DNA of 14,706 nt from Coleofasciculus chthonoplastes F2-STO-03 (GTDB lineage: Bacteria; Cyanobacteriota; Cyanobacteriia; Cyanobacteriales; Coleofasciculaceae): NCBI GenBank assembly GCA_040222015.1, contig JAVJWO010000006.1, forward strand, positions 1-14,706. The letters run 5' to 3'. Made by a program: the position numbers and the translations under genes. The notes beneath the pieces are model-generated. The model had not been told where the DNA came from. It did not search any database and saw only the letters and a list, made by a program, of their open reading frames with translations. Below are positions 427 to 14,706 of the stretch, in pieces (the stretch's first letter is position 1; every line of letters begins with the position of its first letter).

Positions 427-3400
427 TTGCCCATTTTAACCGGATTACGTCAATATTCGGCAAACCATGTCCTGTTAGTTGGGCAGCCCGGTTCAGGGAA
501 ATCGACGGCATTAATTCAGTTTTTGGTAGAACAAGCCAAACAAGCCCTTTCTCACCCCCAGAATCCGATTCCTGTATTGGTGCAATTACGACAGTTTAAA
601 CCATCAGAAACTCATCATTCAGGGGTATTATATCTGATTCAAGATTTCTTAGAAATCCACGAGTTGCTACTTGAAATTTCGGATATCAAAAATCTGCTAC
701 GTAATCGGCGATTATTTCTGCTGTTCGATGGGTTAAATGAGTTACCTAGCAACTCATGCCGACGATATTTAAAAGCATTTCGCCAGAAATATCCGCATCT
801 ACCCATGATTTTTACCACACGAAATTTGGGCGAAGGCGGGGACTTATATATTCGCACTCACTTAGAAATCGAACCCCTGAATCCGTTACAAATAAAACAA
901 TTTATTCACTATTCTATGATAGGGCAAAATAAACAAACTTTACAACAGTTATCCAATCACTGGCGAGAATTGGGTCAGACGCCGTTTGTAATGGAAATGC
1001 TGTCTTTCCTCGTTCATAAAACAGGGCATATTCCCTCTAGCCTAGCCGAAACATTGCGTCAGTTTACGCAGTTATATGAACGTGGATATAAAGAAGATGT
1101 ACCTGTTTCCGATGAGTCTCGGCGCTGGTGGTCTAAATTACTGGAAAAGCTAGCATTTGAAATGATGCAGGGAGACAATCATACCGATTTTAGGTTAAGT
1201 ATTCCTCGTCGAGATGTTGAAATAATTTTTATTGAATTTTTACAAGAAAAGGTAAAGTATCCAGATGATTTGGCAATCCGTTGCTTAGAGGACTTACTCA
1301 AACATCATTTAATTGTTCGTAGTCAGCGCTTTAGCGCTTCTGGCACTGAAGTACCTACTACGAACCTTGTTAGTAGTGAGCGCTTTAGCGCTTCTGGCAC
1401 TAAAGTGCCTACTACGAACGTAGAATTTTCTCATCAACTGATTCAAGAATACTATGCGGCTGAGTATCTGCTATCGTGGCAAAAGATTCTCGAACTCAAT
1501 GATAATCAATTAAAACAAGACTATTTAAATTATTTGAAATGGACAGAACCGTTGGCGTTAATGTTGGCATTAGTTGACAATAAAGCGCAGGCGGTGCGTA
1601 TGGTTAAATTAGCGCTAGAGGTCGATTTGCGGTTAGGTGCAAGATTAGCTGGGGCAGTTAAACCCGAATTTCAAGAAAAGACTGTGGGTTTAGTGGCTCA
1701 ATTAACTGTTACGGAAGCGGTGAAAACACATTTGTTGGGAATAACCCGATCAGAATGGGCAATTGAAGCGCTAATTCCTGGCTTATCGAGTGAAGACTAT
1801 TATATCCGGTGGAGTGCCGTTAATGGGTTGGGTCAAATTAGCTCAGAATCGGTTATTGATGCACTTGAACCAGCTTTGATAGATGAAGATTACGGGATGC
1901 GTTGGACTGTGGCGGAAGTATTAGGAAAAATTGGTACAGAGAAAGCGATTGAACAATTGCGTCAACTAGCTTTCGATAAATATTGTAGTCAATATGTGGT
2001 AGAAGTATTAGGAAATATTGGCTCGGAATCAGCAATTGAACTATTAGGTGAGGTTTTGTTCAGTCAGGATAGATCGATGCATTGGTGTGCCGCTGAAGCC
2101 TTGGCAAATATTGGCACAGAATCTGCTATTAATTTACTCCATAAAGCGTTGTTTTATAGTGATATTGACTTGAGCTATAATGCGGCAAATGCACTGGGTA
2201 TAATTGATAAATTCAGGGCAATTGAGTTACTGACACAAGCATTAGAACATGAACAAAAATCGGTTCGCAGTCATGCCGCTTTTGTCTTAGTACAAAAGTC
2301 GAATGAAGCAGTTATTCCAGTGCTATGTCAGATTTTAGCAAATTTTGATGATGAGATCGCGTACCAAGCCATTAATAGCTTATCAAGTATAGGTACTGAA
2401 GCCACAATTCCTGGATTACATCAAGCGTTGTTCCATCCAAACTACCAAATTCGTAGGCGGGCGCTTAAAGGATTATTGGATATTGGTACAGCCGCAACGA
2501 TTCCAGCCCTGAGTGATGCATTGCGCGATCGCTATTTAGAACGAGAGAGCCGGATTACTGAGGTATTAAAAGAGATTGGCACATCAGACGCGATCGCGGT
2601 ATTAAAACAGGCTTTATTTAGTGATAATTATCATACCCATGAATATGCGGCTGAGGCGTTAGGAAGTATTTGTTCTGAAGAAACGATTAAGATTCTGATC
2701 CAAGCTTTATCTCATCCCAAGCATTCTGTACGCTGTTCTGTTGTTAAGGTATTGGGAAATATAGGCTGTAAATCCGCTATTCCAGAATTAATCAAAGCCT
2801 TACAAGATAAAGAGAGTTCCGTTCGGCACAGTGCGGCTAAAGCCTTAGAAACTATTGCTGATTCAGAGGCTGTTCCCGCGTTAATTCAGGCGTTACACGA
2901 TGAAGATTATCCTGTTCGTTGTCGTGCGGTTGAGGCGTTAGGAACCATTGGCGCACCGGAAGCTGTTTCTGCTTTAGTTGATGTTTGGCAGGATCAATCT
3001 GCTTGTGTACATAAAATTGTGGCTGAAGCGTTAGGTAAAATCGGCACGACAGAGGCAATTAAGGCGTTACGGCAAGCCTTATTGAATGACAATGAATTTA
3101 TTCGTTGGGATGCGGCTAAGGTATTACAAGAAATCGGCGGATCGGAACTATTACCTGATTTGTTTCAAATGCTAGCAAAAACAACCTGCGATCGCACGCC
3201 CGATATACTTGATGTAATATACGCTATTCAAGACCGTTATCAATTTTATAACCAATCTGTAGCTGAATCTTCACCATCGCTTCCGGATCAGTCTGGCGAG
3301 CCCTTGATAAATAGTCTAAAAACAATCATTCAAATCCTCAAAACTATGTCAAACAACCCTACCAATAATTTCCAAGGTGCTACTTTTAACGGCATCAACG

Positions 3401-3726
3401 GGAGTGTTACTGGAGATATCGTCGGCGATAATATTGGCAGTCAAAACAACTACCCCGCCGAACAAAGACAAACACTTACTGAAGCCGCCGCCGAGATTCA
3501 GCAATTATTAGCACAACTGAAAAACTCTAACCCAACCTTAACTGAATCTGAAAGACAAAGTGTTGTTATCGAAGCCATTAACCAAGAAATAAAAAGCAAT
3601 CCAACCTTTAAGCAGCGACTACAAAGTGCGTTAAAAGCAGGTGGTATTGAGGCATTAAAGTCACTATTTCCTGCCGTCAATATTCCCATTGAAACCATTA
3701 AAGGCTGGATGGAGGCTGAATCCTGA
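427..3726 (+). CDS. NACHT/STAND NTPase with PBS-lyase-type HEAT repeats (NLR-like); probably 5'-truncated, since the frame is open from 217
   Basis: Walker A GQPGSGKST, Walker B LFLLFDGLNE, IFTTR, winged-helix FSHQLIQEYYAA, then many HEAT repeats (e.g. VRHSAAKALETIADSEAVPALIQALHDED). The called start is TTG, but family-like sequence continues upstream in frame to about 235. Confidence 0.9.
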   Translation: MPILTGLRQYSANHVLLVGQPGSGKSTALIQFLVEQAKQALSHPQNPIPVLVQLRQFKPSETHHSGVLYLIQDFLEIHELLLEISDIKNLLRNRRLFLLFDGLNELPSNSCRRYLKAFRQKYPHLPMIFTTRNLGEGGDLYIRTHLEIEPLNPLQIKQFIHYSMIGQNKQTLQQLSNHWRELGQTPFVMEMLSFLVHKTGHIPSSLAETLRQFTQLYERGYKEDVPVSDESRRWWSKLLEKLAFEMMQGDNHTDFRLSIPRRDVEIIFIEFLQEKVKYPDDLAIRCLEDLLKHHLIVRSQRFSASGTEVPTTNLVSSERFSASGTKVPTTNVEFSHQLIQEYYAAEYLLSWQKILELNDNQLKQDYLNYLKWTEPLALMLALVDNKAQAVRMVKLALEVDLRLGARLAGAVKPEFQEKTVGLVAQLTVTEAVKTHLLGITRSEWAIEALIPGLSSEDYYIRWSAVNGLGQISSESVIDALEPALIDEDYGMRWTVAEVLGKIGTEKAIEQLRQLAFDKYCSQYVVEVLGNIGSESAIELLGEVLFSQDRSMHWCAAEALANIGTESAINLLHKALFYSDIDLSYNAANALGIIDKFRAIELLTQALEHEQKSVRSHAAFVLVQKSNEAVIPVLCQILANFDDEIAYQAINSLSSIGTEATIPGLHQALFHPNYQIRRRALKGLLDIGTAATIPALSDALRDRYLERESRITEVLKEIGTSDAIAVLKQALFSDNYHTHEYAAEALGSICSEETIKILIQALSHPKHSVRCSVVKVLGNIGCKSAIPELIKALQDKESSVRHSAAKALETIADSEAVPALIQALHDEDYPVRCRAVEALGTIGAPEAVSALVDVWQDQSACVHKIVAEALGKIGTTEAIKALRQALLNDNEFIRWDAAKVLQEIGGSELLPDLFQMLAKTTCDRTPDILDVIYAIQDRYQFYNQSVAESSPSLPDQSGEPLINSLKTIIQILKTMSNNPTNNFQGATFNGINGSVTGDIVGDNIGSQNNYPAEQRQTLTEAAAEIQQLLAQLKNSNPTLTESERQSVVIEAINQEIKSNPTFKQRLQSALKAGGIEALKSLFPAVNIPIETIKGWMEAES
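1315..1419. repeat. Two tandem 51-bp REPIN-like units (54-bp period), in frame within the NACHT gene
   Basis: Units 1315-1365 and 1369-1419. Ends are GTT(C/A)GTAGT...ACTACGAAC (inverted), with internal near-palindromes AGCGCTTTAGCGCT and GCACTAAAGTGC. Protein reads VRSQRFSASGTEVPTTNL VSSERFSASGTKVPTTN. Confidence 0.9.
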
Positions 3727-4537: not shown

Positions 4538-4831
4538 TTAGGAATAGAGAACATCTGCCAAAGTGAATAAATGAAGCTGCCATTTTGCCTCTAGGGGTTG
4601 GGCAATTGCCGCAAATGCTGGGTCAATCAACCGTGGTAGGTTAAAATTGTCTAATTGCCACTCAATGCGGGTGAGAAATAGCCCGGTGTCAAAGTCAGTG
4701 TGCTGGTCTGCATGAATGATATTGCCGCCGTTAGCATAAATCAAATTGGCAAACTTGGCAACTAATCCCGGTTGATCAGGACAGGAGATTAGCAGCGTAG
4801 CCGTTTGGGGTTGATGCTCTCCCTTGCTCAT
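4538..4831 (-). pseudogene. purU: Formyltetrahydrofolate deformylase, N-terminal ACT domain only (truncated)
   Basis: TATLLISCPDQPGLVAKFANLIYANGGNIIHADQHTDFDTGLFLTRIEWQL is the PurU ACT domain. Similarity stops at WQLH and the ORF ends at 97 aa, against about 280 aa for full PurU. Confidence 0.85.
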
Positions 4832-4940
4832 TTTTTTCCCTTGAGCTGAAATTCATCGCTGAGAATGCAGTAATTCTATCAATTTATTCAGTAAAAATTG
4901 TATAGGCTAAACCAGAAAACCCTTATCGACGCTTTCCTTG

Positions 4941-5711
4941 ATGAATCTAAAGCCGATGACACCGCCAATCATTGGAATTACCACCTATAACTACAAGCCA
5001 ACGGGAAACTTTTATTCCCCGGCGGGTTATACTCAGGCAGTCCAGTCTGCTGGAGGGATACCCATTTTGCTTCCGCCTGTTCAATCTGATCCCACCGTTT
5101 TGCTGAACCAGGTGGATGGGTTAATTTTTACAGGTGGGGGTGATATCGATCCAGATTTCTACAACGGTTCCCCTCATCCGACAATTTATGGTACTGATCC
5201 GGAACGAGATCAGGCTGAATTGGCACTCGCGAAACTAGCATTGGCAAAACAAAAACCTGTTTTGGGGATTTGTCGCGGCTTAGAAGTGCTGATGGTAGCA
5301 AGTGGGGGAGATTTAGTCCCCCATCTGCCAGAGGAATTTGGGGAAGATATCCGGCATCGAGAGGAAATGCTGAAACCGAGTCAGCATAAGGTGCGGATTT
5401 ATCCCGATAGCCGACTGTCTCTAATCCTGGGAAAGGAGGAACTTACCGTTGTCTCTTGGCACCATCAAGCCGTGCGTACCCTACCTCGCGGTTGGCAGAT
5501 TGTCGCTAAAGCTGCTGATGGCTTAATTGAAGCATTAGAACACAAACAGCATCCTTTTGCGATCGCGCTGCAATGGCATCCGGAACTCTCCCTCCCAGAT
5601 TCGAGACATTTTGCCATTTTCCAAGCATTGATTCAAGCCGCAAGCTTTGATCAAGACGAATTAAACCCCAATAGTTTTTATTTGCAGACGACAGGCTGGG
5701 GATGTGGATAA
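4941..5711 (+). CDS. Peptidase C26 / gamma-glutamyl-gamma-aminobutyrate hydrolase family (class I glutamine amidotransferase)
   Basis: PIIGIT, DGLIFTGGGDIDP, catalytic LGICRG, SWHHQAV and LQWHPE motifs. The start could be ATG 4941 or ATG 4956. Confidence 0.92.
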   Translation: MNLKPMTPPIIGITTYNYKPTGNFYSPAGYTQAVQSAGGIPILLPPVQSDPTVLLNQVDGLIFTGGGDIDPDFYNGSPHPTIYGTDPERDQAELALAKLALAKQKPVLGICRGLEVLMVASGGDLVPHLPEEFGEDIRHREEMLKPSQHKVRIYPDSRLSLILGKEELTVVSWHHQAVRTLPRGWQIVAKAADGLIEALEHKQHPFAIALQWHPELSLPDSRHFAIFQALIQAASFDQDELNPNSFYLQTTGWGCG

Positions 5712-5837
5712 GCTGTTCGGCATTTAAACCTTAACGTCAATAATTGCTCTCATCCTTGTAGTGCGTTAAGCGAAGCCATGCCGCAGGCTTTGCATCTTGC
5801 TCGCTACTAATACCCAATTTAAATGCATGACAGCTTA
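5709..5837. mobile_element. MITE with about 20-bp terminal inverted repeats and a TA target duplication
   Basis: TAAGCTGTTCGGCATTTAAA (5709-5728) matches the reverse complement of TTTAAATGCATGACAGCTTA (5818-5837) at 17/20. The homologous empty site GTGGA-TA-GGGTTGATTT is present at 8661-8677. Confidence 0.85.
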
Positions 5838-5850
5838 GGGTAGATTTGTC

Positions 5851-5878
5851 TTATGTCTTATGTCTTATGTCTTATGTC
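5851..5878. repeat. Heptamer tandem repeat (TTATGTC)x4, STRR-like
   Basis: Four exact copies, directly visible. Heptamer repeats are typical of filamentous cyanobacteria. Confidence 0.9.
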
Positions 5879-5933
5879 AAAACACTGATTTCACGGATTT
5901 GTCCCCCGAACGCGGTAGATTCAATGTCAGATC

Positions 5934-5939
5934 TATAAT
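5934..5939 (+). promoter_or_regulatory. Possible -10 element for the NrtA/CmpA-like gene
   Basis: Consensus TATAAT 23 nt upstream of the ATG at 5963, with a GAGGA Shine-Dalgarno-like motif between them. Confidence 0.4.
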
Positions 5940-5962
5940 TTATTGGGTGAGGATAAAAGAAC

Positions 5963-7306
5963 ATGAAGCGCCGCCATTTTCTCAAATACACCAGTCTGGC
6001 AAGCACAGGATTAGCCTTTGCCGCTTGTAACTCGGGGAATCTATCCACCTCCCAAAAGAATAACTCTGCTGAGTCGCTATCCGTCTCAAATTCTGACTTT
6101 GGCAAACTCGAAAAAACGTACCTCAACCTCGGCATTATCCCGATTACCGAAAGTGCGCCCTTGGTTATCGCCCAAGAACTAGGCTTTTTTGCTCGCTATG
6201 GACTAAACGTTAGCCTGAGTAAGCAAGAGAATTGGAATCAAATTCAGGATGGCTTACTCGACTACCAGTTAGATGCAGCTCAAGCCTTGTATGGAATGCC
6301 AATGATGGCACAATTAGGAGCAGAAGCCGCCCCCATGGTTGCCCTGATGGTACTCAATCTTCATGGCAGCAGCATTACCTTATCTCCCAAAGCCTGGGAT
6401 GCTGGAATTCGACCAGCAATTGAATATTTCACCTTTCAGGAGTTTGCCGATTCCTATCGCCAATATGTTCGCAAATTCCAGGAACCGCCTATCTTTGCTA
6501 CTGAGTCAAATGCTTCGATGGATTATTACATTAGCCGTTATTGGCTAGCCGCCATGGGAATTAATCCCGAAAGTGAGGTTGAATTTATGGAGATTGCCCC
6601 CTCACAAATGATTTATAAAATCCAAGCAGGAGTTATGGATGCTTATGGCAGCAGTGAACCGTGGAACCAACAGACGGTTTTGCAGGGAAATGGATTTACC
6701 GCTAATGTCTCGCGGAATATTTGGACGGGTCATCCGGGAAATGTACTAGCCACAATGCAAGCCTGGGTAGACGAACATCCCGCAACCGCTAGAGCTTTAG
6801 TGGCGGCGATTCTAGAAGCCTGTCAGTTTTGCGAGCAAGCCAAAAATCGCCGCGAAGTTGCCCAAATTATTGCCCAAAGCAGGTATCTGGATACGGATCA
6901 GGAATATATAGAACCTGCTTTATTGGGTAACTATGATTATGGTGGTTTTGATAACCAGGAACGGCTGGAGACGATTCCTGATTTTTATCGGTTTTATGGT
7001 CAAAATAGCGATGATCCAGAGAAGCCGCATCCAATTAACTATCCCTGGCGTTCTCATGGGATTTGGTTGCTCACTCAGATGATTCGCTGGGGTCAAATTG
7101 AGCAACAAGATTATCCCAAAGATGCTGATCAAATATTAGAGGAAATTTACCCGTTAGACATTTATACAGAGGTAGCTGAGGCATTGAAAATTGAGCTGCC
7201 GAGTGATCCGATGAAAGTGGAACCCGCCACCGTTTTTATTGATCAACGCCAATTTGATCCGAGTGATCCGATTGCTTATCTCAATAATTTTGAGATTCAG
7301 GCATAA
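5963..7306 (+). CDS. CmpA/NrtA-family ABC transporter substrate-binding lipoprotein
   Basis: Twin-arginine signal MKRRHFLK, lipobox FAAC, LEKTYLNLGIIPITESAPLVIAQELGFF, EPWNQ, YPWRSHGIWLLTQMIRWG and C-terminal FIDQRQFDPSDPIAYL. Confidence 0.9.
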   Translation: MKRRHFLKYTSLASTGLAFAACNSGNLSTSQKNNSAESLSVSNSDFGKLEKTYLNLGIIPITESAPLVIAQELGFFARYGLNVSLSKQENWNQIQDGLLDYQLDAAQALYGMPMMAQLGAEAAPMVALMVLNLHGSSITLSPKAWDAGIRPAIEYFTFQEFADSYRQYVRKFQEPPIFATESNASMDYYISRYWLAAMGINPESEVEFMEIAPSQMIYKIQAGVMDAYGSSEPWNQQTVLQGNGFTANVSRNIWTGHPGNVLATMQAWVDEHPATARALVAAILEACQFCEQAKNRREVAQIIAQSRYLDTDQEYIEPALLGNYDYGGFDNQERLETIPDFYRFYGQNSDDPEKPHPINYPWRSHGIWLLTQMIRWGQIEQQDYPKDADQILEEIYPLDIYTEVAEALKIELPSDPMKVEPATVFIDQRQFDPSDPIAYLNNFEIQA

Positions 7307-7328
7307 TAGTTCAAGGATACTACTGGGT

Positions 7329-8450
7329 TTAAAAACGTTTTTTGGCGCGATAAAAGGGTTTTTTCACAACAACGGCGGGATAAGTCTTACCGCGAATTTC
7401 TACTTCTAACTGTTGACCTATTTTGGCTAGAGATGTGGGACAATAGGCAAGCGCGATCGCTTTCCCTAGTGTGGGTGAATAGGTACCACTCGTCACCTCT
7501 CCCACAACCTTGCCATCAGATAGCACCGAATATCCATGACGGGCGATATGTCGTCCCTGCATTTCAATCCCGACTAACCGACGTTCCACACCCTTGGCTT
7601 TTTGGGCATCTAAGACAGAACGTCCGATAAAATCGCCTTGACGATCCAAATGCACTAGCCAACTTAAACCGGCTTCTAGGGGAGTCGTCGTATTATCAAT
7701 ATCTTGTCCATAAAGTGCCAACCCTGCTTCTAGTCGCAACGTATCCCTCGCCCCCAAGCCGCAGGGAGTCACCCCAACCTGGAACAGACGCCGCCACAGT
7801 TCTACCCCAATCTCCGGTTTAACCATCACCTCAAACCCATCTTCGCCAGTGTACCCTGTCCTGGCGATAAATCCGGGTTGATCTAGAATCGTTGCATTCA
7901 GATGTCCAAAGGATTTCAGTGCGGTTAAGTCTTCCTGGACAAACGGCTGTAAGTAAGTCTCAGCTTGGGGTCCTTGTAAAGCAATTAAGACGTTTTCCTG
8001 AGAAAGATCGAGTAACTTTACCCCCATGTTGTCCAATTGGGCTAACAACCATTCTTTATCCTTCTGACAAGTCGCCGCATTAACAATCATCATCGCCTGC
8101 GGTGCGCCTGTTTCATCCTCCCCTTGGTGGTAAACAATCACATCATCAATGATTCCCCCTTGAGGATTCAGTAACACCGTGTATTGGGCTTGACCGGGTT
8201 GTAATCGACTCAAATCTGAGGGGACGAATCGCTGTAACGCTTGCCATAGCTGCTTCCCGGTAAAGGCAAATTTACCCATGTGGGAGATATCGAACATACC
8301 GGCATTGGTGCGTACTGCTTCGTGTTCTTGTCCGATGCTGCTGTATTGGACAGGCATTTCCCAACCGGAAAAGCCGGTGAAGCGGGCATTTTGTTCAACC
8401 GCGAGGTCAAATAGGGGAGTTCTTGCCAGAGAAGGTTTTGACTTAGCCAC
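7329..8450 (-). CDS. gcvT: Glycine cleavage system aminomethyltransferase T
   Basis: RTPL..GWEMPVQY..EHEAVR..GMFDISHMG, ARTGYTGEDGFE, GLGARDTLRLEAG, GEVTSGT, VVKKPFY. Likely start is GTG at 8450 (373 aa), not the track's 8567. Confidence 0.96.
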   Translation of the reverse strand: MAKSKPSLARTPLFDLAVEQNARFTGFSGWEMPVQYSSIGQEHEAVRTNAGMFDISHMGKFAFTGKQLWQALQRFVPSDLSRLQPGQAQYTVLLNPQGGIIDDVIVYHQGEDETGAPQAMMIVNAATCQKDKEWLLAQLDNMGVKLLDLSQENVLIALQGPQAETYLQPFVQEDLTALKSFGHLNATILDQPGFIARTGYTGEDGFEVMVKPEIGVELWRRLFQVGVTPCGLGARDTLRLEAGLALYGQDIDNTTTPLEAGLSWLVHLDRQGDFIGRSVLDAQKAKGVERRLVGIEMQGRHIARHGYSVLSDGKVVGEVTSGTYSPTLGKAIALAYCPTSLAKIGQQLEVEIRGKTYPAVVVKKPFYRAKKRF

Positions 8451-8479
8451 AGATAGTCTTGAGTCACAATGTTTTTCAT

Positions 8480-8485
8480 ATTCTA
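8480..8485 (-). promoter_or_regulatory. Possible -10 element for gcvT
   Basis: TAGAAT on the minus strand about 30 nt upstream of the GTG at 8450. Confidence 0.4.
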
Positions 8486-8521
8486 CCGAGTTGCTTGACT
8501 TAACCTCTGATCCGGTAAATT

Positions 8522-8668
8522 GCGATCGCGCTGCAATGGCATCCGGAACTCTCCCCTTCCGACTCAAGGCATTCGTCGATTTTCCAGGCGTTTATTCAAG
8601 CCGCAAGCGAAACTGAAGCGAACCCGAATGGCTTTCATTTACAGACGACAGGTTGGGGGTGTGGATAG
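8522..8668 (+). pseudogene. Diverged second copy of the 3' end of the peptidase C26 gene, starting at a HIP1 site
   Basis: Translates AIALQWHPELSPSDSRHSSIFQAFIQAASETEANPNGFHLQTTGWGCG*, against AIALQWHPELSLPDSRHFAIFQALIQAASFDQDELNPNSFYLQTTGWGCG* at 5559-5711. Confidence 0.93.
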
Positions 8669-8738
8669 GGTTGATTTTTGGGTATTCCGTACTTAGTGTG
8701 CTAAAAAAGAAAACAGCTAAATGCCCCCGATGTGGTCA

Positions 8739-8835
8739 GGCAGTACACAGAGTATGGTGCTGCTTGAACAATGCCCATGCGCCCAGTGTGCGATCGCCCG
8801 ATCTTATAGGTCAGGTTGCGGGATGAAACCCAACA
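8739..8835 (+). repeat. Copy of the xisI 3' end, downstream spacer, HIP1 and REP-like motif (homologous to 13058-13154)
   Basis: GGCAGTACACAGAGTATGGTGCTGCTTGAACAATGCCCATGC is identical at 8739 and 13058. The ungapped alignment continues through GCGATCGCCCGAT to GGATGAAACCC(A/G)ACA. Confidence 0.92.
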
Positions 8836-8875
8836 CTCATCACTGCTTCTCCACCTCAAACAAGAGTGCGATCGC
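8790..8875 (+). repeat. 86-bp HIP1-bounded unit, copy 1
   Basis: GCGATCGC-CCGATCTTATAGGTCAGGTTGCGGGATGAAACCCAACA...CAAGAGT-GCGATCGC; one mismatch to 10395-10480. Confidence 0.95.
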
Positions 8876-8967
8876 CGTGCCAGTTGCGTAAGTCCGGGTT
8901 AAAATAAAAATGCAGCTTTTGAAGCAAGGTTAACAAAGCTTTATGGGTTCATTAGTTTTAGAACTAA

Positions 8968-9120
8968 ACATTAGAGGTTGAATTTATTAATGGTAGTATC
9001 TACCAATACTCAGGTGTTCCGCTATCAGTCTATTCTGGTTTAATATCAGCTAGCTCACACGGTTCGTATCTAGATCAGTACGTTAAGAAAGCAGGGTATT
9101 CTTACCGGAGAGTCGGTTGA
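8968..9120 (+). pseudogene. KTSC-domain protein, 5'-truncated
   Basis: Manual translation gives TLEVEFINGSIYQYSGVPLSVYSGLISASSHGSYLDQYVKKAGYSYRRVG*, the typical KTSC pattern. An in-frame TAA at 8965-8967 precedes it and there is no convincing start or SSxxxSVGYD N-terminus. Confidence 0.85.
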
Positions 9121-9229
9121 ATTTTCCAAGCTAAAAGAACTATGTCGGTTAATTCCCACCTAACAAGTCTAGCAAGCACTCTCGTCTTATTCATCCAGGC
9201 TGACTTTATACTTCGGCAGCACAGTAACA

Positions 9230-9427
9230 GTGGTAGTCGAAGAAAAAGTAGATGGAGCCAATGCTGCCATTAGTTTTACTCCTGATGGGCAAATGCTGTT
9301 GCAAAGCCGGGGACATTATTTAACCGGAGGAGAGCGAGAAAAGCACTTTAACTTGTTCAAACAATGGGCGTACAGTCATACTGGAACGTTTTGGCAGGTG
9401 CTGGGCGATCGCTATATCCTCTATGGC
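9230..9427 (+). pseudogene. Internal fragment of an ATP-dependent RNA/DNA ligase-family protein
   Basis: VVEEKVDGAN carries the adenylation motif KxDG, followed by LLQSRGHYLTGG and DRYILYG. It stops where the motif III Glu is expected, at the DUF5615 stop codon. Upstream in-frame sequence is not ligase-like. Confidence 0.75.
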
Positions 9428-9783
9428 AGAGGTAAATAAATAATCCGATCCTGATACTCATCGTCTTCGGAAGCAAGAGCAGCTAAAATTAATTCTTCGA
9501 GATTTCCACCAATGCCTAGATCGGAATTGAGAATAAAAATACCAGGTATGTGGCGATTTTGAGCAAGATGATCGGCTAAATGTACAGGCATAGAAGCACG
9601 ATTATTAGTCACCAAAACAAACCCATTGACTTCACACCAGCATAAAATTTCAGGATCTGGCGTGCTTTTGGGAGGATTCCCAGGCTCTCCTACCATAAGA
9701 ACAACTAATTCAGGATATTGCCGCAAAAGTTGAGTTTGATAAACTCGATCGACGTTCTCATCTAAAAGATACTTCAGTGCCAC
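9421..9783 (-). CDS. DUF5615 family PIN-like toxin
   Basis: LKYLLDENV, TPDPEILCWC..GFVLVTNN, HIPGIF; overlaps the upstream DUF433 gene. Confidence 0.88.
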   Translation of the reverse strand: MALKYLLDENVDRVYQTQLLRQYPELVVLMVGEPGNPPKSTPDPEILCWCEVNGFVLVTNNRASMPVHLADHLAQNRHIPGIFILNSDLGIGGNLEELILAALASEDDEYQDRIIYLPLP

Positions 9784-10111
9784 TTGCTTTCCTCATTGCT
9801 TCTCTTTCTGCTCTCAGTTTCCGCAGTTTTTCAGAAACAGGTGGAGGATTGTGTTTTTGTTCCTCTCGCATCCTGCGACCATGCTCAATCCAATTAGCGA
9901 GGTAGGTACTGACTGCTTCTTTGTTGTGCAGATAGTATAGAATCGTAGCGTAGACTTGTTCTAAATCTAGGGTTCGATAACTCTGGGCAATTTCCTCTGG
10001 AGTGCGACACCGATGGATGAAATCGTATAAAACAGTTTCAATCCCTATTCTTGTGTCTTTTATCCGAATGTCATCAGGACTGAGGAAATCAAAATAATCT
10101 TCTAATTGCAT
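9758..10111 (-). CDS. DUF433 family antitoxin
   Basis: IRIKDTRIGIETVL...TPEEIAQSYRTLDLEQVYATILYY is the DUF433 HTH pattern; paired with DUF5615. Confidence 0.9.
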   Translation of the reverse strand: MQLEDYFDFLSPDDIRIKDTRIGIETVLYDFIHRCRTPEEIAQSYRTLDLEQVYATILYYLHNKEAVSTYLANWIEHGRRMREEQKHNPPPVSEKLRKLRAEREAMRKASGTEVSFR

Positions 10112-10158
10112 TTTTCCAGGCTTATAGATTCATAGGGGATAATACTAGGATAGCGTTG

Positions 10159-10193
10159 GCGATGCCGAAGGCGGTTCGCGTAGCGACCATCGC
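10159..10193. repeat. Small dispersed repeat inserted into a HIP1 site
   Basis: GCGAT-GCCGAAGGCGGTTCGCGTAGCGACC-ATCGC: HIP1 halves flank two mini-hairpins (GCC-GAA-GGC and GGT.CGC-GTA-GCGACC). HIP1-targeting small repeats are known in cyanobacteria. Confidence 0.6.
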
Positions 10194-10296
10194 TCGACTC
10201 ATAGAACTGCGATCTCAGGGCAAACAACTATCTAACTACCGCCATACCATATAGCAATTTCATCTTTCAACTCTATCGCCCAAGGCTCAACAGATA

Positions 10297-10392
10297 GTTG
10301 TTTTTTATGAAAATTCAGACATCACAGTTATAGTTTATGCCGTTTTCCACTGCTCTCAAGACCCGAAGAAATGGCGTAGTCGGTTGTTGTAG
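10297..10392 (+). pseudogene. RelE/ParE-family toxin, C-terminal remnant
   Basis: Manual translation gives VVFYENSDITVIVYAVFHCSQDPKKWRSRLL*, the typical ParE/RelE C-terminus. The stop lies 2 nt before the HIP1 site at 10395. Confidence 0.75.
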
Positions 10393-10394
10393 GA

Positions 10395-10480
10395 GCGATC
10401 GCCCGATCTTATAGGTCAGGTTGCAGGATGAAACCCAACACTCATCACTGCTTCTCCACCTCAAACAAGAGTGCGATCGC
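10395..10480 (+). repeat. 86-bp HIP1-bounded unit, copy 2
   Basis: 85/86 identical to 8790-8875. Similarity begins at the first GCGATCGC and ends within one base of the second. Confidence 0.95.
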
Positions 10481-10617
10481 CCAATCGAATCATGAGACTG
10501 GGATGAAACTGGCTAGGTGCAACTGTATTGAGACCATAATAGGGATAAGTGCCTTCAAGTGCCGTTTGAGGTACTCTTATCAATATGGAAAACCTCAGAG
10601 GTTTGAACGTTACCGCT

Positions 10618-11988
10618 ATGGAAATCCAACGGGTTATCTTAAATAACATTGGGCTATTTGAAAACCTGGAAATTCCTTTAGCACCCACTGAGCAAAATCC
10701 CAGCAACATCACCGTCTTTGTTGGTAATAACGGGGCTGGTAAAACCTCTGTGTTGAAAGCCTTAGCTATGTCCCTGAGTTGGTTTACTGCTCGTTTACGT
10801 ACAGAAAAAGGTAGTGGTAACCCTATCCCCGAAGATGACATACTCAACACCGCCAACGCCGCCAGTATTGAAATAGACATTTGTGATTCTTCTGGGGCAT
10901 CAGACAATCCTAATCAAAACGCGATCGAGCATCACTTCAAGTGGACTTTAGCAAAAAATAGAAGAGGACGTAAAGCCCGGTACACTAGCAATCTCAACGA
11001 CTGCACTCGCTTAGCCAATCGTTACCGTGATGCTCTTACCTGCGACGACAAAACCAGCCTTCCCCTACTTGTGTTTTATCCTGTCGAGCGCGTCGTACTT
11101 GATATTCCACTAAAAATTAGGACTAAGCATACCTTCTTACAACTAGATGGTTACGATAACTCTTTAAGTCAGGGGGTTGACTTTCGCCGCTTTTTTGAGT
11201 GGTTTCGGGAACGGGAAGATACCGAAAATGAATCAGGAATGCCTGAAGATTTTCTGAACCAACTCAAACCACTATTGGAAACCAATCCCGACGCATGGCA
11301 ACGGTTAAACGAACTCAATGCCTCAGCCAAAGATCGGCAATTAACCGCAGTTCGCACCGCCATTCGCCGATTTATGCCCCAGATGGACAATCTTAGAGTC
11401 CGTCGTAAACCCCGTCTCCACATGGCGATTGATAAAAACGGTGAAACCCTGAATGTAGCCCAACTTTCACAAGGCGAAAAATCTCTCATGGCTCTGGTTG
11501 GTGATATTGCTCGCCGTCTAGCGATGCTGAACCCTGCTCTGGAGAATCCTCTCGCAGGTGACGGTATCGTTTTGATTGATGAAGTCGATTTGCACCTGCA
11601 TCCCTCTTGGCAACGCAGCCTGTGCGATCGCCTAATCGCAACTTTCCCAAATTGTCAGTTTGTGCTGACTACCCATTCACCTCTGGTGATCAGCGACTGT
11701 AAAAATGTTTTGGTTTACACCTTAACCAATGGTGAATTGCGACAATTGCCCTCTCAGTATGGGCAAGATGCTAATACTGTCTTATTAGATGTCATGGACA
11801 CCAGCATCCGTAATCAGAAAATTAATACTGAACTGAACGATCTGCTGGATGCTATACAAGATTCAAAGCTAACTGAGGCTCAACAACGACTTGCCAAATT
11901 AACTGAGGAACTACCCGCCAATCATCTGGAATTGATCAAAGCCAAATTACTGCTCCGTAAACAAAAATTACGTCATGCGAACCATTAG
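10618..11988 (+). CDS. ABC-type ATPase, PtuA-like (Septu / retron type I-A effector family)
   Basis: Walker A GNNGAGKT, FFEWFREREDTENE, signature LSQGEKS, DIARRL, Walker B VLIDEVDLHLHPSWQ, TTHSP. Start is ATG 10618 (MEIQRVILNNIG) or 10585. Confidence 0.85.
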   Translation: MEIQRVILNNIGLFENLEIPLAPTEQNPSNITVFVGNNGAGKTSVLKALAMSLSWFTARLRTEKGSGNPIPEDDILNTANAASIEIDICDSSGASDNPNQNAIEHHFKWTLAKNRRGRKARYTSNLNDCTRLANRYRDALTCDDKTSLPLLVFYPVERVVLDIPLKIRTKHTFLQLDGYDNSLSQGVDFRRFFEWFREREDTENESGMPEDFLNQLKPLLETNPDAWQRLNELNASAKDRQLTAVRTAIRRFMPQMDNLRVRRKPRLHMAIDKNGETLNVAQLSQGEKSLMALVGDIARRLAMLNPALENPLAGDGIVLIDEVDLHLHPSWQRSLCDRLIATFPNCQFVLTTHSPLVISDCKNVLVYTLTNGELRQLPSQYGQDANTVLLDVMDTSIRNQKINTELNDLLDAIQDSKLTEAQQRLAKLTEELPANHLELIKAKLLLRKQKLRHANH

Positions 11989-12604
11989 TAAAGGATCTGA
12001 ACCCTCCAGTTTGACAGTTTGGAAACGAGCAAACCCTCACGGACGCTACAACCAGTTAACTGAAGATATTCGCCGGACTATTCGGCAATATGCTCTATCA
12101 GAACAATTCTACCTTTGTGCCTATTGCTGCCAGCGCATCCAAAACATTCATGCTTGCCACAATGAGCATATAGAAGCTCAAAAGTTGAATCCTAGACGCA
12201 CACTTGACTTTGCAAATATTGTCGCCAGTTGTAATACCTCTAATCAATGCGGTGATGCTCATAAATCACAACCCCTACCCCTAACTCCTCTGATGACGGA
12301 ATGTGAAACAGAACTTCGCTTTAAAATTAGTGGTCGGGTAGAAGGGTTAAGCGAGCGGGCAATCGTCACGATTCAAGTCTTAAACTTGGGAGATCATGAA
12401 AAAAATAACGGTGCATTGATCGAAAAACGCAAGCAATTGTCTAATGCCTTATTATGGACAAACGGTATAGACCCCGATGAAGGCTTAGAGGATGAAGAAC
12501 TGTTAGAGATGTTAATCGATGAGCTATCACAACCCCAACAGGGTCAGATGGAACCTTTTACTCCAGTGGTAATTAATATCTTGCGAAGTTGGCTTCAATC
12601 TTGA
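11975..12604 (+). CDS. HNH endonuclease, PtuB-like (TIGR02646-type)
   Basis: EQFYLCAYC, HNEHI, LDFANIVASC, CGDAHK, TIQVLNL; overlaps the ATPase stop by 14 nt. Confidence 0.85.
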   Translation: MRTISKGSEPSSLTVWKRANPHGRYNQLTEDIRRTIRQYALSEQFYLCAYCCQRIQNIHACHNEHIEAQKLNPRRTLDFANIVASCNTSNQCGDAHKSQPLPLTPLMTECETELRFKISGRVEGLSERAIVTIQVLNLGDHEKNNGALIEKRKQLSNALLWTNGIDPDEGLEDEELLEMLIDELSQPQQGQMEPFTPVVINILRSWLQS

Positions 12605-12655
12605 AAGCAACTCTTTAAATGGTTATGAATCAGTTCGGAAGCACAACCAAAAGCT

Positions 12656-12763
12656 GACACGTTTTTTCAATACGAATGCACTCAAACTGCGGTACAACGG
12701 TATCAGGTCTTGATAATTGTGTATGATCCAGTTAATGAGGTGATAGTGCGATGGACAAGGTAG
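12656..12763 (+). pseudogene. xisH: XisH C-terminal remnant
   Basis: Manual translation gives DTFFQYECTQTAVQRYQVLIIVYDPVNEVIVRWTR*, overlapping the xisI start as in xisHI operons. An in-frame TGA lies at 12626-12628 and there is no N-terminal nuclease part. Confidence 0.8.
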
Positions 12764-13086
12764 CTCAATATCGGGAGTACATTCAGACATTACTGAGCCA
12801 GTACGCCAAAGATGATGTTTCGGATGATGAAGTCGAAGTGCAACTTATCTTTGACACTGAGCGGGATCATTACCAATGGATGAATGTGGGATGGCAACAG
12901 CTTAACCGAGTTTATCGTTGTATTGTCCATTTTGATATCAAAGATGGAAAAATTTGGCTTCAGCAGAATCTGACCGACCAGAATCCTGCTGAGGATTTGG
13001 TTGAAATGGGGGTTCCCAGAGAGGATATTGTGTTGGGTTTACAGCCCCCTTACAAACGGCAGTACACAGAGTATGGTGCTGCTTGA
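12751..13086 (+). CDS. xisI: XisI family protein
   Basis: MDKVAQYREYIQ..VQLIFDTERDHYQWMNVGW..RVY..HFDIKDGKIWLQQN.T..LVEMGVPREDIVLG. Confidence 0.93.
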   Translation: MDKVAQYREYIQTLLSQYAKDDVSDDEVEVQLIFDTERDHYQWMNVGWQQLNRVYRCIVHFDIKDGKIWLQQNLTDQNPAEDLVEMGVPREDIVLGLQPPYKRQYTEYGAA

Positions 13087-13154
13087 ACAATGCCCATGCA
13101 CCCAATATGCGATCGCCCGATTTTGTCGGTTGGTTTGAAGGATGAAACCCGACA
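13058..13154 (+). repeat. xisI 3' end, HIP1 and REP-like motif (third member of the HIP1-REP unit family)
   Basis: Aligns without gaps to 8739-8835; HIP1 at 13109-13116. Confidence 0.9.
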
Positions 13155-13218
13155 AGGATACTTGAATTTTGTCCATCTACTTAATAACAATTTAAACTCA
13201 AAGAGGTAATCTGTTATT

Positions 13219-13857
13219 GTGTCTTTTGAATCCTACAAAAATCTTGGAGAAGTCCTAAAAGAATATGAAATTACTGCCTCAGAAACAAACTATATTATCG
13301 AAAACAAAATTGATATTCGAGAATCCTTTAGAGAAGATTTAGAATTTTGCATGAAAGAATTAACCTTTGAGGAGTCAGAATATGCGATTTGTGAAACGAT
13401 TATTTTTCCAGTCCTCAAAGAGCTTTATCGCCTTTATCGAGATAAGTTTACCTTGTGGAGCCACAAGTCACTAATTTATAATGAAAAATTATCCGGTGTA
13501 CCTGACTATATCATAGCCAAACGCTCTCCTCTAGGAAAAGAAATATTTGAGCAGCCGTTTTTTGTCGCGGTTGAAGCTAAACGGGATGATTTTACTAAAG
13601 GATGGGGTCAATGTTTAGCTGAAATGGTGGCGATTCAGAAGATGAATGACCACTCTGAACAGCAGACGATATATGGAATCGTATCCAATGGTCAGCTTTG
13701 GCAGTTTGGCAAACTCCAAAACAATCGTTTTACCAAGAATTTTGCAGCCTATACGATATATAATCTCGAACAACTTTTTGCAGCATTGAATTATGTGTTT
13801 AGGCAATGCGAACTGGAATTAGAGGCAATAACATCTGGGTGTAGGGACAATTCATGA
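13219..13857 (+). CDS. PD-(D/E)xK nuclease-fold protein (type I restriction HsdR N-terminal-like)
   Basis: SEYAICETIIFPVL, LSGVPDY, VAVEAKR, GWGQCLAEM, IYGIVSNGQLWQF. GTG start preceded by AGAGG. Confidence 0.75.
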   Translation: MSFESYKNLGEVLKEYEITASETNYIIENKIDIRESFREDLEFCMKELTFEESEYAICETIIFPVLKELYRLYRDKFTLWSHKSLIYNEKLSGVPDYIIAKRSPLGKEIFEQPFFVAVEAKRDDFTKGWGQCLAEMVAIQKMNDHSEQQTIYGIVSNGQLWQFGKLQNNRFTKNFAAYTIYNLEQLFAALNYVFRQCELELEAITSGCRDNS

Positions 13858-13863
13858 ATTGTC
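13841..13863. repeat. GTAG-type REP-like palindrome
   Basis: GTAGG followed by the perfect 18-bp palindrome GACAATTCATGAATTGTC (13846-13863), which contains the nuclease gene's stop codon. Confidence 0.75.
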
Positions 13864-14054
13864 TCAGAATTTAGGGCTTTATTTATATCGCAATCTCGTC
13901 CATTTGTCAAGATATAATATCAAAAAAAACTAATGGATTGTAGCTTCACAGTAAGCAGATATTGTGTTAATCTGATTCAGGTTTGGGTGGTAAGGCGCAA
14001 AGCGGCGCAAAGCCCCCACCAGCCCGTTAAATATTGATCAGGAGTAATCGGATT

Positions 14055-14534
14055 ATGTCTACCCGAAAAGAAGGATTGCATTGGCTTTTCAATAAAAAAT
14101 GTGGTTTCAAAGAGATTCCGGGGCTTCCTGCCTTCGATAGCTATCTGAAAGCGATACTGATTTGTGCGAATGGCGATAATGAGTTAACCCAGGCGGAAAG
14201 AGATTGGGTTATTGGTCACGGATCAGCCTTTAACGCCCCTGATCAAGTGATTGAGGAACTCAAAACTTACCAGGCGGATGAAGACATTGATGCGGTTATT
14301 TCTCGAGACACCGCAGCAAATGCTTGTCGCCGCTATCTTGTCTATGACGCGATCGAGGCTTGTTCGGCGGATGGTGAATACAGTAACGGAGAGCGAGAAA
14401 CCGTTACCAAAATGGCAGCTAAACTTGGTGTTGATGCAGAAATCGTGAAGCAGATTGAAGAGATTTATACTCAAGAGGCTAAACTCCGGGAAAAGCGATT
14501 ATCACTGCTATTCCCGACAGGTACTCCCCTCTAG
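14055..14534 (+). CDS. TerB-like (tellurite resistance fold) protein
   Basis: Two TerB-type motifs, CANGDNELTQAER and CSADGEYSNGER..MAAKLGV. ATG 14055 follows AGGAG at 14040-14044. Confidence 0.65.
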   Translation: MSTRKEGLHWLFNKKCGFKEIPGLPAFDSYLKAILICANGDNELTQAERDWVIGHGSAFNAPDQVIEELKTYQADEDIDAVISRDTAANACRRYLVYDAIEACSADGEYSNGERETVTKMAAKLGVDAEIVKQIEEIYTQEAKLREKRLSLLFPTGTPL

Positions 14535-14706
14535 ATAGTACCCTCCTTTATCCGCCTCTTTCTTAAACTACCTGACAGCCTTATTAAACATTATTGGTAA
14601 AGGTAATATAGCACTACGAGGATACCTGTAGGGGGGCGGGCATGACGTGCCCCCACCCTAGGTGGGGGTTGTGGGGCAAACAAAAAAAAAAAAAAAACAC
14701 AAAATA

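Follow-up and report, generated by a model that had tools for sequence, protein, structure and literature searches.

The window analysed here is a stretch of 14,706 nucleotides forming a whole contig (C6) of the genome of the cyanobacterium Coleofasciculus chthonoplastes F2-STO-03 (hereafter G000; 7.72 Mb, in a fragmented assembly of 219 contigs), and carries a mosaic of defence genes, toxin–antitoxin (TA) genes and gene scraps. We think it reasonably likely that this mosaic is an eroded, integrase-less chromosomal integron whose content is still being turned over through illegitimate recombination anchored by homology, probably in the course of transformation, and that HIP1 (highly iterated palindrome 1), an octamer found once per 1,275 bases in G000, is a crossover site favoured in this process, albeit a minor one. 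Integron decay and recombination bounded by HIP1 have each been described before; what is new is their combination, a shared gene-less module and the turnover after integrase loss. Most public sequencing runs that match the window originate in microbial mats and hypersaline lakes.

A first-pass annotation, made from the letters alone, had described the region from 8522 to 13154 as a gene-shuffling defence hotspot and had proposed aligning it across related strains. The alignment supports that description and allowed breakpoints to be mapped. Eight congeners (G001 to G008) carry the same genes in a variable array at the orthologous locus, between a peptidase C26/cmpA-like gene pair and an intact RNA ligase plus HD-kinase gene, the right border being judged from contigs long enough to include it. 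Gene content and order are different in each of the eight. The Septu-type genes ptuA and ptuB (PtuAB) are present in nine of nine arrays, broken in some, and the rest of the cargo varies: genes of the type found in the cyclic-oligonucleotide-based antiphage signalling system (CBASS), xisHI, Uma2, a TA pair, a phytochelatin synthase and a symporter. CBASS-type nucleotidyltransferases lie in the arrays of G002 and G006, and a scrap of one in the window. The assignment to Septu rests on the adjacent PtuA ATPase and PtuB HNH genes recognized by PADLOC; a reading of the pair as part of retron Ec78 was rejected, the NCBIfam models scoring below cut-off and no reverse transcriptase being seen beside the genes.

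The annotation had called the locus an integron-like array. The likeness is real and was understated, because attC sites, attI-like sites and intI stubs in relatives indicate descent from a true integron. Sites of about 86 bp with the structure of attC (R''/R' cores, L boxes and a paired stem with covariation) occur in the orthologous arrays of five of the eight congeners, two each in G001 and G005 and one each in G002, G003 and G006. They were identified with a covariance model of our own, not that of IntegronFinder, built from 10 attC sites; nine of its 18 pairs covary on both sides, a value equalled in none of 500 shuffles. Three of the five attC-bearing arrays lie outside the training set, and the model found no match at five gcvT control loci. 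In the relative G036 it detected 19 attC sites, one of which scored 81 bits and lies 1.6 kb away from a complete IntI. The one G005 cassette that was checked has a matching core pair (GTTAGCC/GGCTAAC), as expected of a circle inserted by an integrase; no gene in the window is bounded by complementary cores in this way. G006 has an attI-like site in its array, G002 has an intI stub, and the parents of the KTSC slice of the window adjoin a truncated, divergent intI in G191 and G290. Two attC sites without intI, which define a CALIN (a cluster of attC sites that lacks integron-integrases), are absent from the window and present at the orthologous locus in G001 and in G005. The window is therefore a descendant of a CALIN-type array and not itself a CALIN.

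Related loci were seen elsewhere. G003 (L148, contig C31) and G006 (L149, contig C12) each hold a further, separate CALIN, of three and two attC sites respectively, the cassettes of L148 resembling TA pairs. In G191 (L150, 6651–8479), a KTSC gene, a SMODS nucleotidyltransferase gene and a 268-aa gene of unassigned family stand directly beside the truncated intI, and may form a CBASS-like unit with a KTSC partner.

Several observations weigh against an integron origin of the window. No attC was matched in it even with the filters off, and none was found genome-wide in G000 among the 150 of 2173 candidates that were scored. G004, G007 and G008, three of the eight congeners, likewise gave no attC anywhere (150 candidates scored per genome). 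A possible attC left arm at 13082–13108 and 8764–8789 fitted a loose pattern but not a weight matrix built from 19 of 28 attC sites, and was rejected. In no genome seen does attC bound PtuAB, xisHI or the DUF433 pair, which may have entered by routes other than the integron.

The statement of the annotation that the window has no integrase and no intact attC is borne out by our searches. No IntI above the TIGR02249 cut-off was found in the nine genomes of the genus, the IntI of G036 had no match in G000 by tblastn, and attI was detected neither in the window nor in G000. An integrase acting in trans, from a visiting plasmid or phage or from a gene missing from these fragmented assemblies, could nevertheless still shuffle the array. 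Intact attC sites with different neighbours and the one perfect cassette in the congeners speak for this, as does a complete IntI in two of 41 genomes of the order. We hold it improbable, however, since none of the window's joints coincides with a crossover point of attC or attI, G000 lacks attC, and integrases move whole cassettes and leave no gene slices.

Such slices are abundant in the window (Table 1). The six plus-strand remnants listed in the annotation were all confirmed, and a seventh was added: the 5' end of a SMODS nucleotidyltransferase gene (9142–9229, with a 43-bp internal deletion), which makes the KTSC piece (3' end at 8968–9120; Pfam E 7e-16) part of a two-gene operon fragment that was cut on both sides. 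The xisI 3' end (8739–8767) opens a 97-bp repeat that is 88% identical to 13058–13154. The ParE remnant has no Pfam match by itself, and a near-complete gene is present in the G003 array. In congeners the array is anchored on its right by the RNA ligase, of which the window keeps an internal piece; this piece joins DUF5615 with an overlap of 7 bp, and the two parents carry HIP1 8 and 2 bases upstream. Intact C26 adjoins the cmpA-like gene in seven of eight congeners. The tendency towards 3' remnants that had been claimed disappears when the orthologous arrays are taken together, since a hand count over the nine gave about nine 3', 10 5' and 10 internal scraps.

Table 1. Features of the window, with the support for each.
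Feature	Position	Strand	Support and remarks
Peptidase C26, intact; upstream anchor	4938..5711	+	Pfam PF07722; HIP1 at 5559
NMT1-like (CmpA/NrtA-type) binding protein; conserved left border of variable array	5963..7306	+	Pfam PF13379; 92% in congeners
gcvT and upstream DNA, relocated from another locus	7329..8519	-	Pfam GCV_T
12-bp crossover with HIP1, gcvT upstream DNA to C26 tail	8520..8531	.	HIP1 here in both parents
C26 3' remnant	8522..8668	+	78% DNA identity to intact copy at 5557-5710; residues 208-257 of 257
xisI 3' remnant (to 8767) and spacer	8739..8789	+	Duplicate of 13058-13108; its 5' cut lies away from HIP1
Unit copy 1: degenerate GTAG-type REP arm between two HIP1, the second (8868) at homology end	8790..8876	+	
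KTSC-SMODS nucleotidyltransferase operon slice	8966..9229	+	91% to G191; Pfam of parents
RNA ligase internal piece	9230..9427	+	Pfam E 2e-12; residues 36-101 of 268
DUF433-DUF5615 pair, intact	9421..10111	-	Pfam; 98% in congeners
ParE toxin 3' remnant	10297..10392	+	83% to residues 69-98 of a 99-aa protein, ParE by Pfam
Unit copy 2: left part of 186-base HIP1-closed REPIN-like hairpin	10395..10494	+	
Septu-type PtuA ATPase and PtuB HNH nuclease, intact	10585..12604	+	PADLOC E 4e-167 and 6e-97
xisH 3' remnant	12656..12763	+	Pfam positions 105-134; cut has 2-bp overlap, no HIP1
xisI, intact	12751..13086	+	Pfam E 5e-47
Unit copy 3, stops after REP arm	13109..13154	+	
PD-(D/E)XK nuclease gene	13219..13857	+	PADLOC PD_DExK E 7e-48; array position varies among congeners
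TerB-like gene	14034..14534	+	Weak Pfam TerB; array-last here, array-first in G007 and G008

The remnants had been explained as tails of resident genes, left behind when cassettes were replaced at HIP1 and at repetitive extragenic palindrome (REP) sites. The C26 scrap does not fit this explanation. It is 80% identical to the resident 3' end and 88% identical to that of G008, with which it shares a 6-bp gap, whereas the resident C26 is 93–97% identical to those of six other congeners; the tail is thus a more distant allele that came from another lineage. It is joined to the gcvT upstream DNA by an exact HIP1 crossover within 12 shared bases. A second sign of exchange comes from sequencing run X1, which represents a close but different strain: the block 10452–13869, comprising PtuAB to the nuclease gene with unit copies at its ends, differs by 2.0% between X1 and G000 and the flanks by 0.24% (P 5e-17), as would be left by a recent allele swap. 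Finally, 279 of 280 segments common to the arrays keep their orientation, which is not expected from free recombination at the palindromic HIP1 and is expected if long homology anchors the event. ComEC and DprA are present in G000; Ku, as a sign of Ku-type end joining, was looked for and not found.

A foreign allele joined at 12 bp, co-orientation and block replacement, all three read from genome comparison, may be signs of homology-facilitated illegitimate recombination. In a plausible scenario, incoming DNA from a related array would pair where sequence is shared (in the unit, in PtuAB, in the DUF433 pair or in the ligase), and its other end would join at 0–13 matching bases wherever it happened to fall, producing gene slices in their original orientation. 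Where both partners carry HIP1, the octamer would be used beyond its abundance, and later deletions would trim the array further.

The main rival to this scenario starts from the same decayed integron and derives the scraps from tandem duplication and deletion at microhomologies within or between the cell's own chromosome copies, with little foreign DNA. Ligase pieces upstream of the intact ligase, two ligase–DUF433 scraps in tandem in G003, unit copies identical at 86 of 87 positions and the strict co-orientation are all in its favour. It accounts poorly for a C26 tail that is a distant allele, for a KTSC slice closest to another family, and for one block eightfold more divergent than its flanks between close strains. 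We consider it unlikely as the general explanation, although such events probably contribute; transformation is the probable route, and duplication with deletion in one chromosome would yield the same orientation pattern, a point that counts against our preference for transformation.

Other scraps illustrate the variety of the locus. In G003 (L024, 15168–16850), about eight short co-oriented pieces (60–460 bp) of the ligase, the DUF433 pair and their neighbours are joined almost bluntly, one being cut inside HIP1 and one at an attC core. In another genus (L052, G018:C158), a poly(A)-polymerase-like gene, the unit twice, the RNA ligase and the HD-kinase gene occur together at 88–92% identity, so that the whole locus appears to have moved between genera. 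Within the window, about 67 bases lie between the C26 and xisI scraps (8672–8738); parts of them match short repeats in G005 and G328 and were read as a CPRC zinc-ribbon stub, perhaps derived from a transposase.

HIP1 is over-represented where the arrays break. Breakpoints fall in or just after the octamer at 14 of 181 distinct sites against 1.8 expected, in a count that replaces an earlier one taking the nearest member of loose clusters. From 58 automatic junctions, 27 were dropped by hand (parental artefacts and repeat insertions) and 31 were kept as recombinant joins, eight of which touch HIP1, four with the octamer in both parents. Four of the five joins with an overlap of 8 bp or more contain HIP1, compared with 3.4% of the available matches; 24 of the 31 have an overlap of 4 bp or less, or an unseen parent. 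A genome-wide test covering 1.85 of 8.7 Mb of G002 against G000 placed 10 of 400 breaks at HIP1 versus 4.0 expected (P 0.008), two of them related and one identical with the gcvT joint. Control octamer pools gave 0–5 breaks, and a first test over 650 kb had given five of 140. Small indels between G002 and G000 showed no excess (7/810 versus 8.1). We conclude that HIP1 is a real but minor crossover site, accounting for about 8% of array breakpoints and 2.5% genome-wide. The expectation that breakpoints would not be random with respect to HIP1 is upheld to that extent, with over 90% of them lying elsewhere.

Even this limited role of HIP1 has to be weighed against contrary points. About 11 of the 14 HIP1 breakpoints are independent, some sites having been counted twice, and adjacent bins contain 5 and 9. 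One and the same unit is involved in five of the eight joins that touch HIP1. Clean two-parent joins genome-wide gave none at HIP1 in 30. Alignments may also end at HIP1 merely because it is conserved, which would add to the pairwise signal.

The model of the annotation goes much further, with a dedicated site-specific system capturing and replacing cassettes at HIP1/REP units and leaving 3' tails. It draws some strength from at least six different left flanks that meet the unit at its first HIP1, from the exact HIP1 crossovers, and from published accounts of precise HIP1-bounded excision and HIP1 site-specific plasmid recombination (PMC13756078, PMC4390886). However, the C26 remnant is the only one of the six whose 5' cut point lies at HIP1. 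The balance of scrap types, the position of most breakpoints away from HIP1 and the near-absence of inversions at a palindromic site all run counter to it, and a recombinase gene was found in none of the fetched arrays. Such a system seems to us improbable.

The unit itself turned out to be part of a larger element. It had been reported after three gene ends, and the three copies at 8790, 10395 and 13109 are indeed present (the first two identical at 86/87 positions, the third ending at 13154). Those at 8790 and 13109 belong to one duplicated xisI–unit join, so that the unit follows two different gene ends and not three. The exact 15-base motif occurs three times in the 7.7-Mb genome, each time within the window, which is not chance. 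A search of 301 genomes gave copies of the 100-base unit at 82–90% identity in 12 that belong to other genera, and most copies begin exactly at HIP1. Their surroundings contain attC sites (in the fetched stretch of nine of the 12 genomes) and a longer module devoid of genes. This begins on its left at an attC crossover, the left part following 11 of 28 attC sites. In the middle, two inverted GTAG-type REP arms form a 186-base hairpin with HIP1 at both ends, an arrangement resembling a REPIN (a REP doublet forming a hairpin); the fold has a z of -5.9 for the full element in G003 and -3.2 for the left part kept in the window. On the right, the module matches the stretch of the complete G036 integron that comprises the intI start and attI (E 4e-32), and about 15 intI codons remain. 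The module was assembled from overlapping copies, the fuller ones from other genera and families, no single fetched copy spanning it end to end.

A bolder reading, which we regard as possible but doubtful, is that a mobile integron relic without genes, made up of attC crossover, HIP1-closed REPIN, intI stub and attI, is common to filamentous cyanobacteria and now serves as a landing pad: with the integrase gone, defence genes would be swapped across species and families by transformation, the exchange being anchored on the relic and finished at HIP1.

An enrichment of HIP1–REP units behind defence-gene stops had been anticipated. The exact unit is confined to the window, and the HIP1-linked REP arms elsewhere are not so placed. 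A pattern search gave 93 REP arms in G000, seven with HIP1 within 25 bases versus 1.3 expected, and outside the window none followed a recognizable defence-gene stop, as judged by eye. A second REP variant, in which HIP1 precedes the arm by eight to nine bases, was noticed at G000:C7 28892–29187, C10 66168, C96 73104 and C125 26715; together with the excess among the 93 arms, it suggests that the REP family inserts beside HIP1 or carries it. A promoter role for the unit was considered and dropped, as scans of 8500–13300 gave 10 promoters versus 8.2 in shuffles and six terminators versus 4.0, with nothing at the unit. The only match of an Rfam search of the window and four loci was a tRNA in one distant locus.

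The annotation had also looked to a REP-associated tyrosine transposase (RAYT) linked to these repeats. The genome has one for the family, but on another contig: an RAYT-like Y1 gene at G000:C28 52250–52612, with PF01797 over the cut-off and cognate REPs on both sides; its RAYT motif is one we take to be characteristic. A transposase of this kind could cut at the REP arms of the unit and seed rearrangements, and several breakpoints do lie inside the unit. We regard this as very improbable, since the arms in the window have lost the GTAG end (ATAG and GTCG), no such mosaics were seen with the 93 arms genome-wide, and most joins are far from any REP.

A misassembly, named in the annotation as a result that would undo the whole proposal, is hardly credible as the source of the mosaic. 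Caution was warranted by a short-read style assembly, by the position at a repeat-rich contig end, and by the fact that no listed X1 contig spans the 8522 joint with 31 letters on both sides. Run X1, however, carries 5850–8526, 8526–8768 and 8847–10455 each as one piece, so the mosaic is not an assembly error, and identical joints recur in independent genomes (9421–9427 in four). X1 differs from G000 by 0.1–0.3% in the flanks and has an extra unit copy at 13869. Runs X2, X5 and X7, which cover parts at 90–95% and in the arrangement of the relatives, are uninformative on this point.

Rearrangement is not confined to the array. The gcvT segment sits elsewhere in the five congeners for which the gcvT region was fetched, and lies next to the cmpA-like gene in run X1 as well. 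The former neighbours of gcvT lie in G000 inside separate contigs (C40 and C5), no longer adjacent, and the left joint of the segment (7317–8531) has no HIP1. No intact ligase or HD gene was found in the G000 assembly, and both seem to have been lost in this lineage. The DNA after the TerB-like gene (14545–14640) resembles the end of G000:C174 in reverse, a contig with genes that come after the array in congeners. We presume the DUF433–DUF5615 pair to be TA-like.

To the left, the C-terminal end of an open reading frame (1–216), presumably an IS605-type TnpB, precedes a plus-strand gene (427–3726) for a 1,099-aa NACHT and HEAT-repeat protein, which is found at this locus in G001 and G002 and not in five other congeners; a 54-bp repeat unit occurs twice in it (1313–1419) and about six times in G002. 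The minus strand at 4538–4831 holds the 5' third (ACT domain) of a gene that we take to be purU, with no second copy in G000 by tblastn. Its 292-residue frame is kept in G003, G004 and G005 and broken in G002, G007 and G008, and the region is a second erosion zone, left of C26. A 129-bp multicopy element at 5709–5837, resembling a miniature inverted-repeat transposable element, has 84 near-full matches in G000 and is inserted into DUF5615 in G001 and G007.

Cyanobacterial integrons are known mainly from database counts, and here their erosion can be traced across a genus from intact attC cassettes to total loss, the array remaining a defence hotspot without an integrase. The function of HIP1 is unsettled; natural joints with both parents in view give a real, small excess. 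Defence arrays of integron origin that would escape attC-based tools after attC loss are marked by the conserved module. Should the landing-pad reading hold, it would describe an integrase-free afterlife of integrons and the first natural HIP1 crossover footprint in immune-gene turnover. The literature searched, from which subscription journals were mostly outside, gave no account joining HIP1 and integrons, although supplements may list such arrays.

The closest known systems are CALINs and degraded sedentary integrons, with which the locus shares a fixed site across the genus, attC clusters, a lost or truncated intI and variable cassettes. CALINs were defined, and cyanobacteria placed among integron carriers, by Cury et al. 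(PMC4889954), and a cyanobacterial attC model exists (PMC8352920). Unlike a CALIN, the present genome has been eroded of every intact attC. In the integrons of the Xanthomonas ilvD locus, intI loss at a fixed locus is reported to have left arrays more stable (10.1101/2025.06.18.660453), whereas here gene content and order still vary from species to species, as they do among close strains. Anti-phage systems have been described as integron cargo (10.1101/2024.07.02.601686), and the Septu genes in nine of nine arrays, the CBASS-type nucleotidyltransferases, the TA pairs and the nucleases follow that pattern; in our case most cargo is no longer attC-bounded, and its defensive function is predicted from sequence. 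Transformation-fed cassette capture (PMC12614218) and attI-bounded, delta-attI-type cassettes (PMC12901181) have also been reported. By analogy with the latter, a segment from attC crossover to attI could in principle be moved by IntI, although the module is gene-less and is not seen end to end in a single fetched copy.

As for the recombination itself, homology-facilitated illegitimate recombination (PMC3240628) and SPDIR (short-patch double illegitimate recombination; 10.1101/2023.11.22.568220) likewise combine one homologous with one illegitimate end and give truncated genes in the donor orientation; our case is known from genome comparison, and a preference for HIP1 does not figure in the accessible text of those accounts. 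HIP1-bounded events include smtB excision in Synechococcus PCC 6301, plasmid recombination in PCC 7002 and a Chi-like effect on transformation (PMC13756078, PMC4390886, 10.1101/2024.09.10.611283). They share with our joints a HIP1 at the crossover of otherwise unrelated DNA, and differ in being laboratory events where we counted natural joints between genomes. REPs and REPINs of the GTAG family are described with RAYTs, and the repeat SDR5 as inserted into HIP1 (PMC5861425, PMC4390886). The element found here resembles them in its inverted REP arms forming a long hairpin, in a RAYT with the same REPs in the genome and in the HIP1 that closes both ends. It is distinguished from them by its confinement to integron remains, its worn GTAG ends and its length of about 186 bases, against the 21 bases of SDR5.

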